The notes under the pieces: generated by a model
Told to the model about the DNA's origin: nothing
What the model saw: only the letters and a program-made list of their open reading frames with translations
Databases searched by the model: none
In this document: positions 3,485 through 8,798 of the stretch, piece after piece
Numbering within the stretch: position 1 is the first letter of the stretch
Layout of the letters: the number at the start of each line of letters is the position of its first letter
Made by a program: the position numbers and the translations under genes
Origin: a virus
Reading direction: 5' to 3' (one strand)
DNA: 64,000 nucleotides
Virus genome (UHGV): UHGV-0141439

Positions 3485-4252
3485 TCACCCCATAGATATC
3501 GAGGTTTCGGTAATAATACGTTTTGCGTCCAACTCCCATGCTGTGATCACGTCTGCAATCACACTTATCGGCGCTTGTGTGGCATAAATACGCTCTTCTC
3601 CAATTGGTGCCGAAACATCCGTAAATCCGACTTCTTTGGCATCCTGTATCGAGCAAATCAGCGGGACCGGGACACGAACAAGGTGAGTGGTTGCTTCAAA
3701 TTGTGTACCTGTCATCAGGCGAAGCCGTGCGCCCAGCGAATTACACATCAGACTCATGGTCGCTTTATCAGTTGCCATTAACGTAACGTCATACGTCAGA
3801 ATGGCCTGGGTGTATTCCAGTTCTGCTAAAGGCATTCCGGTATCCGGTTCGCAAAAACTGGCTACTTTTTTGCGGTCAATCTGCTGATCATCGTTGATAT
3901 AATTGATATCCATAGTGCGTGAGATATTGACCAGGGGGAGAGCATCCCGGTTAATGTTCTGGTTTTCAGGTTTTCTCCCTTGCCCGGCATTTGCGCGACG
4001 AACTGCTTTAAGAAACTCGATCGCATTGTCGAAACGGGCCACATAGACACGCTCTGCTGGTGGACGATTCAGGAATGACGCAAAGCGTTTTTCTTCCGGC
4101 GCGGGGGCCACCAGTAAGATATCAGAAAAGATATTGCTGATTAGCGTAGCAAACGCGTTATCCACGTTTTCAAAGCCCGTGGTCTGGAATTTTCCTGTGC
4201 GTGAGGTTTGCCATTCACCTGTTCGCGCCAGGAGGGTTTTATTTGAAGTCAT
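3485..4252 (-). CDS. Hypothetical protein (operon member)
   Basis: 255-aa ORF; 4-nt overlap with the upstream gene. Confidence 0.4.
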   Translation of the reverse strand: MTSNKTLLARTGEWQTSRTGKFQTTGFENVDNAFATLISNIFSDILLVAPAPEEKRFASFLNRPPAERVYVARFDNAIEFLKAVRRANAGQGRKPENQNINRDALPLVNISRTMDINYINDDQQIDRKKVASFCEPDTGMPLAELEYTQAILTYDVTLMATDKATMSLMCNSLGARLRLMTGTQFEATTHLVRVPVPLICSIQDAKEVGFTDVSAPIGEERIYATQAPISVIADVITAWELDAKRIITETSISMG

Positions 4253-5040
4253 TCGATCACTCCGTTTTGAGTCGTATCAAAATTCCTGGCAGGTATGCAG
4301 TAGTAAAGCGAACCAACATGCTGTGTGCCGTAGCTAAAAATACGGTGCACGTACCACCAGCGGCGGGCTACGCCGTTTACCATCTCTTCATTCCATTCAA
4401 GAATTGATCCGACGGGGACGTTATTTGCTGCAATACGCAGAATCAGAACATCATCGGTTAAGCCATCCTGCTCACCGTCTGCGTCAATCGCATGGAAAGA
4501 GTCACGCCCGTCCGGGTTATCCAGCACATAAACGATTTCAGGTTCCTGGTAAGTCAGTTCGCGCTGGTTGTTATCCAGTTCAGTGAATGACTCTTCTCCT
4601 GTTTCGTCGCTGACTACCCCATATGTGCCAACATCTGGTCGATATAAGAGAGCCTGAAACGCGTCTGGGCTGGATTCAATAATCAGCATCCAGTCTGCGC
4701 GGATTTGGTCGTTAAAGGCTTTATGCCCGTTATAGCGTGCTTTTAGCTGTGGAGTTGGTTCTCTGCCAGCCAGGGAAGGTGGAAGTATGGCTATATCTGA
4801 TTCGGCAGCATCCGGAGTAAGGCCAGCGTTGCTATCAGCAAAATTATCATGGCTATCAGCTTTGGCGGCGGGTTGCTCTTCCAGAATGCTGAATGAATCC
4901 GAACCGGTATTGCCATGTTCCGGCGCACCTCCTGCATTCGCTTCAATCGGCGCTGGCGTTTCTCTCTGCGTGCTGTCATGTTCTGACTCCTTACTTGCCA
5001 GGTTTGCATCGTCAGCAAACCATTCGTCAAAACGGCCCAT
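4249..5040 (-). CDS. Hypothetical acidic protein (operon first gene)
   Basis: Track ORF 4249-5142; likely start is the ATG at 5040 (MGRFDEW...), 6 nt after a GAGG. Confidence 0.4.
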   Translation of the reverse strand: MGRFDEWFADDANLASKESEHDSTQRETPAPIEANAGGAPEHGNTGSDSFSILEEQPAAKADSHDNFADSNAGLTPDAAESDIAILPPSLAGREPTPQLKARYNGHKAFNDQIRADWMLIIESSPDAFQALLYRPDVGTYGVVSDETGEESFTELDNNQRELTYQEPEIVYVLDNPDGRDSFHAIDADGEQDGLTDDVLILRIAANNVPVGSILEWNEEMVNGVARRWWYVHRIFSYGTQHVGSLYYCIPARNFDTTQNGVIE

Positions 5041-5202
5041 AAGCATCCTCAAAGGTCGATCTGTCAGGTATCGAAAGGAAGATTTTCGGGAGATTGTGAT
5101 TTTGGATGAAGGAGGGGGAATCCATAAAATGCACTTGCGCACAGTGCAACAGTGCGCTATAGTTATGGCATTCGGTAATCATCACGGAGGATCAAATGAC
5201 TA

Positions 5203-5505
5203 ATGACCAAAAAAATTAACATAAAGGATTTCAGGGATGCGTGGCTTGATGATTTTTTTGAATTTTCAACACCACATAGAAAGATACCTCCTGATATTCA
5301 TATGACATTGTCACGGAAGTTGGACATTATCAATGCCGCAACTACCTGTAAGGATTTAAGATCACCACCAGGTAATCGGTATGAGGAACTGTCAGGGAAG
5401 CTAAATGGCTATTCATCAGTAAGGGTGAATAAGCAATATAGGTTAATTTTTAAGTGGGTTAACGGAAAGGCCGAGGACTTGTATCTCGACCCTCACAAAT
5501 ACTAA
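5203..5505 (+). CDS. higB: HigB-family toxin (plasmid maintenance system killer, RelE/ParE fold)
   Basis: 100 aa; C-terminal pattern SVRVNKQYRLIFKWVNGKAEDLYLDPHKY is typical of HigB-like toxins; antitoxin follows. Confidence 0.75.
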   Translation: MTKKINIKDFRDAWLDDFFEFSTPHRKIPPDIHMTLSRKLDIINAATTCKDLRSPPGNRYEELSGKLNGYSSVRVNKQYRLIFKWVNGKAEDLYLDPHKY

Positions 5506-5575
5506 AACAGATACCCGGTTACGGACCGGGTTCTGACCAGAGTCCACTTAATACGCACGCTAGTAAGGGCAAAAA

Positions 5576-5914
5576 ATGAAACAGGCAACCAGAAAACCGA
5601 CGACCGTAGGTGATATCCTTCTGTACGAATACCTGGAGCCGTTAGAGCTGAAGATCAACGAGTTAGCAGAAATACTTCATGTTCATCGTAACACCGTAAG
5701 TGCTCTTGTTAATAATAATCGTAAGCTAACGATGGATATGGCATATCGCCTGGCAAAAGCATTCGATACTTCTGTAGATTTTTGGATTAATCTTCAGACC
5801 GCAGTAGATCTGTGGGAAGTCGAAAATGATATGCGCGTTCAGGAAGAGTTAAGTCGTATCAATACTGCTGAAAAATTTATTTCTCAGCGGAACCTGAATA
5901 AAAAAGCAGCCTGA
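5576..5914 (+). CDS. higA: HigA-family antitoxin, XRE-type HTH
   Basis: 112 aa; HTH segment LAEILHVHRNTVSALVNNNRKLTMDMAYRLAKAF...FWINLQ; immediately downstream of higB. Confidence 0.75.
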   Translation: MKQATRKPTTVGDILLYEYLEPLELKINELAEILHVHRNTVSALVNNNRKLTMDMAYRLAKAFDTSVDFWINLQTAVDLWEVENDMRVQEELSRINTAEKFISQRNLNKKAA

Positions 5915-5936
5915 TATAGTAAAACACATACAAAAA

Positions 5937-5964
5937 GCCCACTTAGCAAGTGGGCTTTCCTTTG
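5937..5964 (+). terminator. Rho-independent terminator after higA
   Basis: GCCCACTT-AGC-AAGTGGGC hairpin followed by TTTCCTTTG. Confidence 0.6.
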
Positions 5965-5970
5965 TAATTA

Positions 5971-6171
5971 ATGAACATTAAACCTATCCGTACAGAACAA
6001 GATTATGAGGCCGCACTGCGTGCGGTCGAACCGATGTTCGATAACGAACCGGAAATGAATACTCCGGAAGGTGATTTCTTTGAGGTTATGAGTCTTCTCA
6101 TTGAGGAGTACGAGAAGAAACATTACCCAATTCAGCCACCATCACCTGTTGAATCTTTTAACTATCCATAA
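5971..6171 (+). pseudogene. Orphan N-terminal fragment of a YgjM/HigA-type antitoxin (no HTH domain)
   Basis: 66 aa (IRTEQDYEAALRAVEPMF...LIEEYEKKHYPI) resembles the N-terminal half of HigA-type antitoxins; the reading frame stops before any HTH and AT-rich DNA follows. Confidence 0.35.
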
Positions 6172-6192
6172 TAAAAGTAATCAGGATAAGCT

Positions 6193-6921
6193 ATGATGTC
6201 AGAAAAAGTTACAGATAATCCGTCTATAAATGAAACAGAACTAAAATCATTTTCTGAAATAATAAAAGATAAAATATTTAACAAGGTTTTTGCATATGTT
6301 GTCATTTCTTTTCTAATTTTTAACTGGAAGGATATTTTAATTATATTAAAGTCAAAGGACGACATCCTATATACATTATCTATTGTTTTTGTTGGTGGTA
6401 ATGTCCCGTTCTTTGATAATTGGATTGTATCCCCGTGGGTTTATCACGTTGTAATCCCATTTGTTTATGGAGTATTTGCATCTGTGTTAGCTCCTATTCT
6501 CACACTGAAGATATCTAAGCTAACAAGTAAATTATACACTGAAATAAGATATTTAGATGAAGCTGCTGATTATGATAAAAGAATAGAATTGCAAAGAAAG
6601 AAAACAAAGTTAAATCAAGCAACCAATGACGCTAAATATTCAAAACAAATCTTAGATGAAAATGAAAATAAACTTAATGACCTAGCTAAGAAACAGCGAG
6701 AAATTTGCGGCGCGATAAAACTATTGCATACTGATGTTGGCAGTATTATTGAGCTATATAAAAATAAGGGGGTTAGCATTGAATCTCCGCAAGATTTATG
6801 TGATTTTATAGTCGCTATAAAAAGCACATCATTCTATAATGATGACAAGCATTTTAATAAATTGGTGTCTGATATTTCCAGTTTGTTTGATAATACTGGA
6901 ATTGATCTTTCAAAAAAATGA
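6193..6921 (+). CDS. AT-rich membrane protein with C-terminal coiled coil (possible abortive-infection/exclusion protein)
   Basis: 242 aa; three hydrophobic helices then a K/E-rich coiled coil; local GC far below the flanking DNA. Confidence 0.5.
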   Translation: MMSEKVTDNPSINETELKSFSEIIKDKIFNKVFAYVVISFLIFNWKDILIILKSKDDILYTLSIVFVGGNVPFFDNWIVSPWVYHVVIPFVYGVFASVLAPILTLKISKLTSKLYTEIRYLDEAADYDKRIELQRKKTKLNQATNDAKYSKQILDENENKLNDLAKKQREICGAIKLLHTDVGSIIELYKNKGVSIESPQDLCDFIVAIKSTSFYNDDKHFNKLVSDISSLFDNTGIDLSKK

Positions 6922-6928
6922 AAGCCCA

Positions 6929-6966
6929 GCATAAACTACTAGGCTATGTGTGGTTTATGCTTTTTT
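6929..6966. terminator. Bidirectional hairpin terminator between convergent genes
   Basis: GCATAAAC-N16-GTTTATGC followed by TTTTTT on the + strand and preceded by an A-run. Confidence 0.5.
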
Positions 6967-8148
6967 CACGTACTCTATAAACATCTTCTCAGCCTGTTCT
7001 TGTGGCGTTCCAGCCATGACAAGCGCATCAATGAACGCCTGCTTCTTCAGTGCGAACTGATCGGCAAGGCGTTGCTGAAGTTCCTTATTTTTCTGTTTCT
7101 CACGTTGCAAGGCCGCTTCTTTTGCAGCCGCCCGTTTTTTCTGTGCGTCTGACAACTTTCTGGCCCTGGTCAATTGGTCACGTAGCTTGTCGATCTTGCC
7201 GTTGTCCTTTGCCAGTTTTGTACTTAAAGCTGCCTGGCGTTTCTGATAGAGCCTCCATTCGCGTTTGGCGGCTTCAACGTTCGTTTTACTGCTACGATTG
7301 CGATTAAACTCCTTCTCGTCTTCTTTTGAGAAGTGTTTAGTTGTACGGCGGCGATCGTCACCAAATGCAATTTGCGTTGCAGCCTTTTGTAGCGCACGAG
7401 CAATACTCATTTGCCAACTGGCGGACTGTAACCGCGTCATTGAGTGGATCACGTGTTTACAGGCGACGCCTTGCAGCTTCGGGTTGCGAACTTTTGGATA
7501 GGCGTATTCTTTTGGCGGTGCCAGGGCAAAGTTACCCGCAGTGGCGATGTAACGATACCAGTATTGATGACGACCACAGTCACAATCGAAAGACACTCGC
7601 CCGGCGCACAGTGATTTAGTGATTTTGAGAGCTGATTTATCGTCTTCTGCGATGTCATCAACCATCTGATCCCATTCTTCAAAGCGTATCCGGACGATAT
7701 GGTGCTGGTGGACGGATATATCCGATGCTTCTACGCGGATATTAATCACATTGTGGCGAAGAGATACGGGGGTAGCTCTTTTGATACCAGATCCGTCATC
7801 CACGGCGTTATTTGCACGCTTAATATCGATTGCCTGGCTGGATGCCACCAGCTGGGCGTATGTGATGCCAGCCGTCTTGCTGTCATATTTTTCGCGCGTT
7901 TTACTCCGTAGCTTTTCGAAACCTTTCAGGTCGTCTCGCGTGAAGAACGTGCCGCCTTTTTTCTTCCCTAACTTGAGAATATCTTCGGCGGATTTGTTCC
8001 TCAGTCTACCTGGCGTCAGCGTCCGGTGAGCTTGTCGGCGCTTACGGGTTTGTTCTTTCCTGATAATCTCGAATAAACGCGTGAAGTCCTTAGAGGACAG
8101 GCCGTCAGTGATATAGCGCCCGTCCTGGTTTTTCAGGAAATCAGGCAT
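6955..8148 (-). CDS. SWIM-type zinc-finger protein with basic coiled-coil C-terminus
   Basis: 397 aa; CDCGRHQY...CKHVIH fits the CxCxnCxH SWIM pattern. Confidence 0.45.
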   Translation of the reverse strand: MPDFLKNQDGRYITDGLSSKDFTRLFEIIRKEQTRKRRQAHRTLTPGRLRNKSAEDILKLGKKKGGTFFTRDDLKGFEKLRSKTREKYDSKTAGITYAQLVASSQAIDIKRANNAVDDGSGIKRATPVSLRHNVINIRVEASDISVHQHHIVRIRFEEWDQMVDDIAEDDKSALKITKSLCAGRVSFDCDCGRHQYWYRYIATAGNFALAPPKEYAYPKVRNPKLQGVACKHVIHSMTRLQSASWQMSIARALQKAATQIAFGDDRRRTTKHFSKEDEKEFNRNRSSKTNVEAAKREWRLYQKRQAALSTKLAKDNGKIDKLRDQLTRARKLSDAQKKRAAAKEAALQREKQKNKELQQRLADQFALKKQAFIDALVMAGTPQEQAEKMFIEYVKKA

Positions 8149-8470: not shown

Positions 8471-8663
8471 AACAAAGCCTCTCAGTCATAACCTGGGGGA
8501 AACTGTATGCAGGGTGTGAAATGCGAGAAACAGACAGGCCACCAGTTCAGGGGGATGTGGTTCATAAATCCCCTCACTGGTGACAAGTGACTTTCATTAA
8601 TCTTTATGCGGGGGCCAGCTTCATTTGCTGGCATTAGATTAAAAATTAAACGGAGTGAATAAC

Positions 8664-8798
8664 ATGGATGTTATCTTCGAATTATTAATGCTAATTGATC
8701 TGTTTATGAACGCTTCATTGACCACTCAAATACTGGCGTCAATATTTTTGTTACTCTTCTACCTGGTATTGAGGGAGTTAACAAAGCTACTAATGTGA
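8664..8798 (+). CDS. Small hydrophobic peptide (44 aa), membrane-toxin-like
   Basis: ATG at 8664 after GGAG; hand translation MDVIFELLMLIDLFMNASLTTQILASIFLLLFYLVLRELTKLLM. Not in the ORF track (under 60 aa). Confidence 0.25.
   Translation: MDVIFELLMLIDLFMNASLTTQILASIFLLLFYLVLRELTKLLM

Follow-up and report, generated by a model that had tools for sequence, protein, structure and literature searches.

A truncated higA remnant and an allelically diverse membrane-protein gene in the tail-gene block of D6-like phage-plasmids

The stretch of DNA analysed here, 64,000 nucleotides of virus genome UHGV-0141439 (referred to throughout as the window), is a D6-like phage-plasmid of the P1 family: it matches Escherichia phage D6, a P1-related phage-plasmid, and the region of interest also matches 122 PLSDB plasmids from E. 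coli, Salmonella and Shigella. Between the window's homologues of P1 tail genes 7 and 25 lie two open reading frames (ORFs), one of 66 amino acids at 5971–6171 and one of 242 amino acids at 6193–6921, both of which had been called at the same coordinates in an earlier sequence-only reading of this DNA. As judged by alignment, the first ORF is the N-terminal half, without the helix-turn-helix (HTH), of a higA antitoxin gene of the E. coli K-12 type. The comparison with related plasmids indicates that an older HigB/HigA toxin–antitoxin (TA) module once stood here, that its toxin gene was replaced, and that recombination, with its junction at 6148, cut short the antitoxin gene. The second ORF encodes a predicted membrane protein, here called Mem, whose family is, on the evidence of gene order, a conserved and long-standing occupant of the gap between genes 7 and 25 in P1-like elements, the TA pairs being the variable part. 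From this context we tentatively favour the reading that Mem is a prophage-expressed anti-invader membrane protein, with single-protein abortive infection as the preferred mode of action, a preference that falls a little short of an even chance.

Results

The truncated antitoxin gene

We compared the 66-residue ORF, hereafter the stump, with its closest relatives. Phage D6 carries at this site orf72, which encodes a 119-residue HigA-type protein (HigA119); its DNA is the same as that of the window up to position 6147 (about 177 nt, or about 58 residues) and diverges from 6148 onwards, and residues 1–58 of the stump are identical or near-identical to HigA119. The stump matched the PADLOC profile PD-Lambda-2_B over positions 1–65 of 402 (2.5e-16) and PHROG 1373 ('transcriptional regulator') over the N-terminal part only. 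Full-length HigA119 aligned to E. coli K-12 HigA (5IFG/5YCL) over residues 24–132 (8.7e-8), a protein in which the HTH is C-terminal (PMC6987408). In the stump, no Pfam HTH match was obtained, the HTH half was missing from the alignment, and the ORF ends at residue 66. Since HigA119 is homologous to a K-12 HigA whose HTH is C-terminal, the window ORF has lost its DNA-binding half, in agreement with the sequence-only description of it as an orphan N-terminal half of a HigA-type antitoxin; the presumed toxin-binding region, N-terminal and homologous to that of HigA, is retained. RefSeq plasmid records (e.g., NZ_CP195379.1) list a 'helix-turn-helix domain-containing protein' at the stump although the HTH half is absent, and this name looks like annotation carried over from the full-length gene.

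The fate of the toxin gene could be followed in the same relatives, which we denote by locus numbers. Other D6-like plasmids have higA119 preceded by its cognate higB100, and intact HigB100–HigA119 pairs occupy the same site in L005, where Mem is present, and in L006, where it is not, consistent with the older TA module that had been supposed at this site. HigB100 aligned to K-12 HigB (1.1e-7) and to PADLOC PD-Lambda-2_A (1e-41). In the intact pairs, the 3′ end of higB contains the GGAG Shine–Dalgarno sequence for higA119. Both D6 and the window lineage have, precisely in place of higB, a RelE/HigA112 pair with its terminator that reaches to a few bases before the higA ATG, so that this replacement removed both the toxin gene and the Shine–Dalgarno sequence of higA. 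What stands directly upstream of the stump is accordingly a terminator and an unrelated RelE/HigA112 pair, not the cognate higB, and tblastn found no homologue of HigB100 or HigB103 in the 64-kb window. A plasmid with RelE/HigA112, an orphan full-length higA119 and an empty Mem slot is represented by L004. The toxin partner was lost in an event of its own, and in this respect the earlier idea of an inserted cassette that truncated the module is not supported.

In the E. coli plasmid pMTY12355_3 (L055), an element of the IS3 insertion sequence (IS) family lies within the stump, at the equivalent of window positions 6071–6076, while the downstream Mem gene is intact; 1.3 kb separate Mem from the upstream TA operon in this plasmid. 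An insertion inside the stump with Mem left intact indicates that the stump is dispensable, and the stump is probably a decaying, non-functional remnant or pseudogene. As it keeps the presumed toxin-binding part, it could in principle neutralise a HigB100 arriving on a rival plasmid.

Alleles of Mem and the boundaries of the variable cassette

The DNA around the stump changes sharply in composition and in similarity to relatives. In 200-nt windows, GC content was 0.415 at 6000–6199 and 0.245–0.33 across 6100–6999, with 0.47–0.53 in the flanks and about 0.48–0.5 in the tail genes, confirming the AT-richness described in the sequence-only reading. Sliding DNA identity to five relatives was 97–100% left of 6148, 46–73% from 6149 to about 6945, 83–91% over 6945–7041 (the last ~90 nt of gene 25) and 94–100% beyond. 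The allele-specific variable cassette delimited in this way, 6148–6945, comprises a 45-nt leader, the membrane gene and a 3′ spacer, and the point at which higA is truncated, 6148, is the left edge of this AT-rich segment: positions 5971–6147 of the stump are the conserved 5′ half of the gene, and positions 6148–6171 are a foreign tail with its stop codon.

At the same site, D6 has the full-length orf72 followed by orf73, whose product is 58% identical to the window Mem. The other relatives have either an empty slot after full-length higA119 (L004, L006) or one of at least five other Mem alleles, which in D6-like plasmids encode proteins of 242–259 amino acids, 37–58% identical to the window Mem. 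Overall, the alleles are 30–58% identical to one another with frame and motifs kept; the neighbouring TA and tail genes are 97–100% identical. Among the IMG/VR and metagenome contigs checked individually, copies of the window's allele (allele 1) all carried the stump, and the other D6-like alleles were accompanied by an intact higA119, except in L027, where the match is split in two. This constant association of allele 1 with the stump, and of the other alleles with full-length higA119, indicates that the truncation was a single event tied to allele 1. The earlier proposal that an inserted cassette truncated the antitoxin gene therefore stands in so far as the cut lies at the cassette edge, but at least five other Mem alleles follow a full-length higA119 in D6 and many plasmids, and full-length higA119 is found in relatives both with and without the membrane gene.

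The window arrangement is modest in prevalence but does recur. A Mem copy at least 90% identical was present in 71 PLSDB plasmids; the plasmids matching the whole 4800–7400 query did so in one ungapped piece of the same length as the window, and the exact arrangement occurred in 51 of 5426 complete E. coli genomes, each time on a plasmid. No donor context for allele 1 was found in PLSDB, IMG/VR, one genome per species or metagenomes, and every copy had the same junction. We considered a simple 200-bp deletion as the cause of the stump; local alignment of the 45-nt leader with the intergenic regions of other alleles gave scores within those of shuffled sequences, and this lack of leader similarity makes a junction replacement as likely as a deletion. 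Junction 6148 may therefore represent an incoming cassette that joined inside higA, or a deletion followed by divergence, and the sequence fits either.

Mem in other elements and its relation to TA modules

To place Mem outside the D6-like plasmids, we compared the loci of its homologues. In the distant P1-like contigs L038 and L039, Mem stands alone between genes 7 and 25, with a gp25 73% identical to that of the window. Elsewhere, it lies behind HigB103/HigA139 (L028, L035), ParE/HTH124 (L031) or TacA/GNAT (L041), and across P1-like phage-plasmids five different TA pairs, or none, are found upstream of it. Mem is also alone between ogr and gene D in a P2-like contig (L040) and alone in an Enterobacter chromosome (L007), and in L046 its neighbours are UmuC and a Bro-N protein. 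The view of the membrane gene as a late insertion into a TA module is contradicted by these loci, in which Mem is the conserved occupant, alone in L038 and L039 and behind unrelated TA pairs in L028, L031 and L035.

One arrangement recurs, however, and it bears on a reading in which Mem belongs to a HigBA-type module, as its third member or its toxic effector, and is repressed or neutralised by the HigA encoded upstream, so that the window would hold a derepressed or decayed tripartite system. The order higB–higA–Mem, on one strand and with spacers of 55–120 nt, is found in three backgrounds: D6-like plasmids (HigB100/HigA119), Enterobacter P1-like and Klebsiella plasmids (HigB103/HigA139), and the unrelated phage contig L042, where HigBA is 53–54% and Mem about 26% identical to the others. 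The window type and L041, which are lineages independent of each other, moreover both have an HTH-less higA stump beside Mem. Against this reading, Mem occurs without any TA pair in L038, L039, L040, L043, L046 and L007; it also follows the unrelated families RelE/HigA112, ParE/HTH124 and TacAT; and HigBA is 98–100% identical between L028 and L035 whereas Mem is only 49% identical there, which argues against co-evolution. The window type, with neither the HTH nor higB, is the commonest form by the PLSDB and E. coli genome counts given above, the island in Klebsiella is a captured phage-plasmid fragment, and a gene that acts independently downstream of higBA has a published precedent in Caulobacter higX (PMC13384398). 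We therefore regard a tripartite system as improbable. Since Mem is found without TA genes, behind unrelated TA families and, in 71 plasmids, behind an antitoxin gene from which the HTH is deleted, it is treated here as autonomous of the upstream TA pair; its loci reveal no obligate linkage to a cognate antitoxin gene, and the anti-invader reading of Mem is framed for a protein acting alone.

Several of these loci are described further here. In L041 (2758–4693; IMGVR_UViG_2906128962_000004), TacA and a GNAT toxin are followed by a 68-residue internal higA fragment without HTH and then by Mem, and in L042 (3173–4660), a sister contig with the same backbone, HigB–HigA–Mem is intact; by its gene order, L041 is an independent parallel of the window layout in an unrelated phage backbone. 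In L043 (896–4603; IMGVR_UViG_3300048921_000549), the genes for an OLD/AAA_21-type ATPase (PADLOC HEC-04, 1e-33) and a C5 cytosine DNA methylase are followed directly by that for a Mem homologue, a setting that is defence-island-like. About 54 large Klebsiella plasmids (IncFIB/IncHI1B; e.g., pKp1198 of K. pneumoniae, L034 3959–6748) carry a HigB103–HigA139–Mem island. This island still holds 51 nt of tail gene 7, which marks it as a captured fragment of a P1-like phage-plasmid and not a self-contained module. Cronobacter phage JK004 was examined as a further Mem locus and rejected: HigB103/HigA139 is present elsewhere in its genome, and the next gene is a mat homologue, not Mem.

The Mem gene

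The Mem gene has a GC content of 0.295, and 0.235 at third codon positions, in a window of 0.475. All Mem-family alleles (L001–L035) lie 9–18 GC points under their replicon or flanks, whether these are P1-like, P2-like or an Enterobacter chromosome. Low GC in every allele and every replicon type identifies AT-richness as a trait of the Mem family and not as the sign of one recent transfer. The gene was intact at 242 codons in every allele-1 copy examined. Within allele 1, the ratio of nonsynonymous to synonymous substitution rates (dN/dS) was 0.2–0.58 for Mem versus 0.03–0.2 for tail genes, indicating that Mem is under purifying but relaxed selection; by these measures it is a real gene. Many NCBI records of Mem (clusters P0001 and P0004) are labelled 'partial' and stop at the ends of ~55-kb contigs, which suggests that assembly from short reads frequently breaks off within a gene as AT-rich as this.

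Predicted architecture of the Mem protein

The Mem family is small: a search of 1.84 billion proteins yielded 41 representatives at E ≤ 1e-3. The window protein matched phrog_8191, a family of unknown function, over positions 1–242 of 242 (1.8e-122). All 28 aligned family members matched PHROG 8191 and 20–22 of them also matched 13369 or 4780; none of the PHROGs of the family (8191, 13369, 4780, 22645 and 35327) has a known function. Allele 1 matched no PADLOC v2 model at E ≤ 0.1. A housekeeping homologue of Mem was not found in the family and fold searches, and literature searches found no paper on the protein or the locus.

Hydropathy analysis with 19-residue Kyte–Doolittle windows gave values above 1.6 at residues 32–54 and 78–108, with a shorter hydrophobic stretch at 58–70. 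Of the three hydrophobic helices proposed in the sequence-only reading, two are therefore clear and the third is only short. An AlphaFold2 model built on the 28-sequence alignment (mean predicted local distance difference test score 80.9) consists of an N-terminal helix (12–28), a kinked hydrophobic helix (31–53), a short helix (58–67), a hairpin (71–79), and a single continuous helix from 81 to 192, of which the first ~25 residues are hydrophobic, followed by two short C-terminal helices. A long helical stalk can safely be taken from this model. The coiled coil that had also been proposed agrees with this long helix but only in part with the heptad pattern, which is clear only for residues 150–192, at a level reached by 28 of 1000 shuffled sequences, and is weak at 108–150; the stalk is probably a coiled coil. 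From hydropathy and the model together, Mem is predicted to be an inner-membrane protein. Lys and Arg residues flank both hydrophobic helices on the N-terminal and C-terminal sides, and hydropathy and charge together suggest an N-in/C-in topology with a cytoplasmic stalk.

Conservation is unevenly distributed over this predicted architecture. Between alleles, identity was 56–69% in the membrane module (residues 24–122; 6262–6558, + strand), which is the most conserved part, and 21–47% in the stalk and 26–64% in the C-terminal domain. The variable, predicted cytoplasmic part (6559–6918, + strand) comprises the helical stalk at residues 123–192 and a small C-terminal helical domain at residues 193–242. 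The membrane module, with its hydrophobic helices at 32–54 and 77–108, carries the motifs KDK.FNK, NW, KSK.D and LP..G..AS, and residues N44 and P89 are invariant across the 28 family members.

This distribution of conservation bears on superinfection or entry exclusion, in which an inner-membrane Mem would block DNA delivery, especially of related P1/D6-like phage-plasmids that would be competitors of the resident or supplant it, and its alleles would be exclusion specificities. As a predicted membrane protein from a moron within a tail operon, Mem resembles HK97 gp15 (PMC3594210), and P22 SieA is also an inner-membrane exclusion protein (PMC10883804). Exclusion would need no toxicity-control partner, and Mem does stand alone in L038, L039 and L040; its alleles are also discrete in otherwise near-identical plasmids. 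Exclusion-group variation in TraS/Eex systems provides an analogy for such alleles. However, the membrane module with its short predicted periplasmic loop is the most conserved part of the protein, the opposite of what a surface recognising tail tips would show, fold searches gave no similarity of Mem to gp15, SieA or viral predicted folds, and the C-terminus of gene 25 shows no meaningful co-variation with the allele. A recognition pair between that C-terminus and Mem had been considered as a candidate and was rejected: the differences are slight and confined to the last ~18 residues, as scatter of the junction would produce. We consider exclusion unlikely, though it is the main rival. Within the anti-invader reading, abortive infection is favoured over exclusion because the variable parts are predicted to be cytoplasmic and the conserved part is the membrane module, a sensor-plus-effector layout.

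Layout of the island

In P1 itself, genes 7 and 25 are only 3 nt apart with no island between them, so everything that separates them in the window is an added island. The left flank is the homologue of P1 tail gene 7 (4249–5142, − strand), 98% identical to D6 orf69, which is annotated 'similar to P1 gene 7'. It is followed on the + strand by an intact gene for a RelE/HigB-like toxin of 100 amino acids (5203–5505; Pfam PF05015, HigB-like_toxin, 4.4e-35), 100% identical in D6 and related plasmids, and by the intact gene of its partner antitoxin HigA112 (5576–5914; Pfam PF01381, HTH_3, 7e-11), which the records of D6 and the plasmids name a HigA family antitoxin. A strong terminator-like hairpin at 5934–5958, with an 11–13 bp stem containing five G–C pairs and then a T-rich tail, closes this operon directly upstream of the stump ATG. 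The stump and the Mem gene follow, also on the + strand. Between the convergent ends of Mem and gene 25, hairpins at 6923–6961 (a terminator-like site at 6945–6923 on the − strand and an inverted repeat at 6928–6939/6950–6961) are likely a bidirectional terminator. The right flank is the homologue of P1 tail gene 25 (6955–8148, − strand), 98.5% identical to D6 orf74 and 56% to P1 gp25.

By this layout, 5203–6945 is a small accessory island, or 'moron', that lies on the strand opposite to that of the late tail operon and interrupts this operon between genes 7 and 25. It is extra DNA at a conserved position and of deviant composition (GC 0.295–0.42 versus 0.475–0.50), as is characteristic of morons. 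Morons in the Hendrix/Juhala sense also have a promoter and a terminator of their own and are expressed from the repressed prophage; here the terminator-like hairpins lie at 6923–6961, and the promoter scan gave no site upstream of 6193. In Rfam and repeat scans of 5000–7200, no RNA family passed the threshold, and there were no flanking repeats of the IS or att kind.

The position of Mem within the tail/baseplate block, kept across P1-like lineages, would suit a role in the life cycle of the phage-plasmid (lysis timing, tail or baseplate assembly, DNA ejection or entry) instead of defence, and its membrane anchor and long helix are loosely like those of spanin- or holin-associated proteins. 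Yet Mem is on the strand opposite to the late operon with a strongly deviant GC content, is absent from P1 and from the otherwise complete D6-like plasmids L004 and L006, and has unrelated locations in P2-like elements, in elements of other kinds and in a chromosome of Enterobacter. Its extreme allelic divergence is also unexpected for a structural or lysis accessory whose partners are 97–100% conserved, and we judge a life-cycle role to be most improbable.

A second AT-rich gap (GC about 0.36–0.40) lies between the homologues of gene 26 and mat and contains a very hydrophobic ORF of 47 amino acids at 8655–8798, where the D6 annotation has two tiny ORFs in the matching gap. This ORF may be a second small membrane moron.

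Discussion

Function of Mem

In the reading we favour, Mem would be expressed from the resident plasmid prophage and would protect the lysogen against other phages or rival phage-plasmids. Its variable cytoplasmic stalk and C-terminal domain would sense a product of the invader, and its conserved membrane module, assembled into oligomers by way of the long helix, would then make the inner membrane permeable or depolarise it. An anti-invader role is favoured on the grounds of three features taken together: moron traits like those of HK97 gp15, the company of TA and defence-type genes, and a cassette-like allelic diversity in conserved backbones.

Several results weigh against this reading. Searches of Pfam, NCBIfam and PADLOC with the window protein and 28 family members returned coiled-coil noise only, and comparison of Mem with solved and viral predicted folds, together with a profile search of PDB sequences, gave nothing significant. 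A promoter scan found no promoter-like site between the terminator at 5934–5958 and the Mem start at 6193, which bears on expression in the lysogen. The empty slots in L004 and L006 show that Mem is dispensable, and an IS903-type element interrupts the gene in about 54 Klebsiella plasmids, which may reflect a cost or chance. The predicted topology draws on hydropathy and charge, and the hypervariability of Mem also fits exclusion, anti-defence or surface-related roles.

That dispensability and the IS903 splits would also suit another form of lysogenic conversion, not directed against phages, such as tolerance of envelope stress, bacteriocin resistance, host interaction or plasmid maintenance, or a selfish AT-rich cassette from which the host gains nothing. 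Homology does not constrain the function of Mem, and the roles of morons are diverse (PMC3594210). Sharp allelic diversification in a conserved backbone and repeated TA/defence company are, however, more typical of conflict systems, and the frame is intact in all allele-1 copies examined, with dN/dS below 1. We consider these other roles distinctly unlikely, and the anti-invader reading remains the one we prefer.

A bolder form of the anti-invader reading, doubtful but not far-fetched, is that the Mem family gives temperate enterobacterial phages a new determinant of immunity or exclusion, encoded by one gene and seated in the membrane. Its exchangeable alleles would decide which phages or rival phage-plasmids are kept out of a P1/D6-like lysogen, the upstream TA pairs would serve as anchors or expression drivers, and the recurrent loss of the HigA HTH (window type, L041) would be selected derepression and not neutral decay.

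Mem, an accessory membrane gene of a prophage that lies in a hotspot next to the debris of TA modules, could prove to be a new defence family. Hypervariable and at a fixed site, it is an inexpensive and clearly delimited candidate for a new function against phages or plasmids: its natural alleles, at least six in near-isogenic backbones, lend themselves to straightforward swaps, and phage-plasmids of the D6/P1 kind are frequent in E. coli, Salmonella and Shigella. If Mem gave no phenotype, the locus would be an ordinary mosaic moron island. In either case, the locus records the exchange and decay of TA modules in a hotspot, where a toxin gene was replaced and its antitoxin gene orphaned and then cut to a stump.

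Comparison with known systems

The antitoxin side of the locus is closest to K-12 HigB/HigA (5IFG, 5YCL), to which HigA119 and HigB100 of the relatives align and with which they share the toxin-first order; the window copy differs in having neither the C-terminal HTH, nor the Shine–Dalgarno sequence, nor the toxin partner, and is a remnant only. PD-lambda-2 (Vassallo et al. 2022) consists of a HigB-like protein A, a HigA–peptidase fusion B and a P4-antitoxin-like third protein C (PMC9519451). HigB100 of the relatives matches A (1e-41) and HigA119 matches B over positions 1–119 (4e-43), but none of the relatives has the peptidase part, and both the toxin and the third gene are missing from the window. 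RelE, HigA112 and Mem matched no PD-lambda-2 model. We therefore rejected the assignment of the locus to PD-lambda-2, a three-gene system of which only B is matched in the window, by the stump and over 65 of its 402 positions.

With respect to Mem, exclusion morons are the nearest parallel in genomic setting. HK97 gp15 is a membrane protein that is encoded by a moron and blocks genome injection (PMC3594210), and P22 SieA is an inner-membrane exclusion protein (PMC10883804). Mem shares with these the form of a small GC-deviant unit in the tail block, absent there in reference P1, and a predicted inner-membrane product; it differs in showing no sequence or fold similarity to them and in being far larger than gp15, with a helix of ~110 residues and a cytoplasmic C-terminal domain.

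The relation between Mem and the TA pairs has a parallel in the Caulobacter higBA–higX locus, where higX, a gene for a membrane-associated protein directly downstream of higBA, acts independently and is the older resident, higBA being the newcomer (PMC13384398). In both cases, the downstream gene is constant and the TA pair is the newcomer or variable part. HigX is a transmembrane transcription factor with a DNA-binding domain (PMC13384398). Mem, in contrast, has no DNA-binding domain and is not homologous to HigX, and its locus is on a phage-plasmid and not a chromosome.

In the proposed mode of action, Mem would be closest to membrane-effector abortive infection. No PADLOC model matches the window Mem, and its relatives match only coiled-coil regions of LmuB/JetC and similar proteins, which sets the family apart from the modelled systems. 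Known membrane-effector abortive-infection systems include RexB and effectors with two transmembrane segments (2TM). The likeness of Mem to these lies in a predicted membrane module that could oligomerise, in the pairing of a variable putative sensor with a conserved putative effector, and in a location among TA and defence genes.

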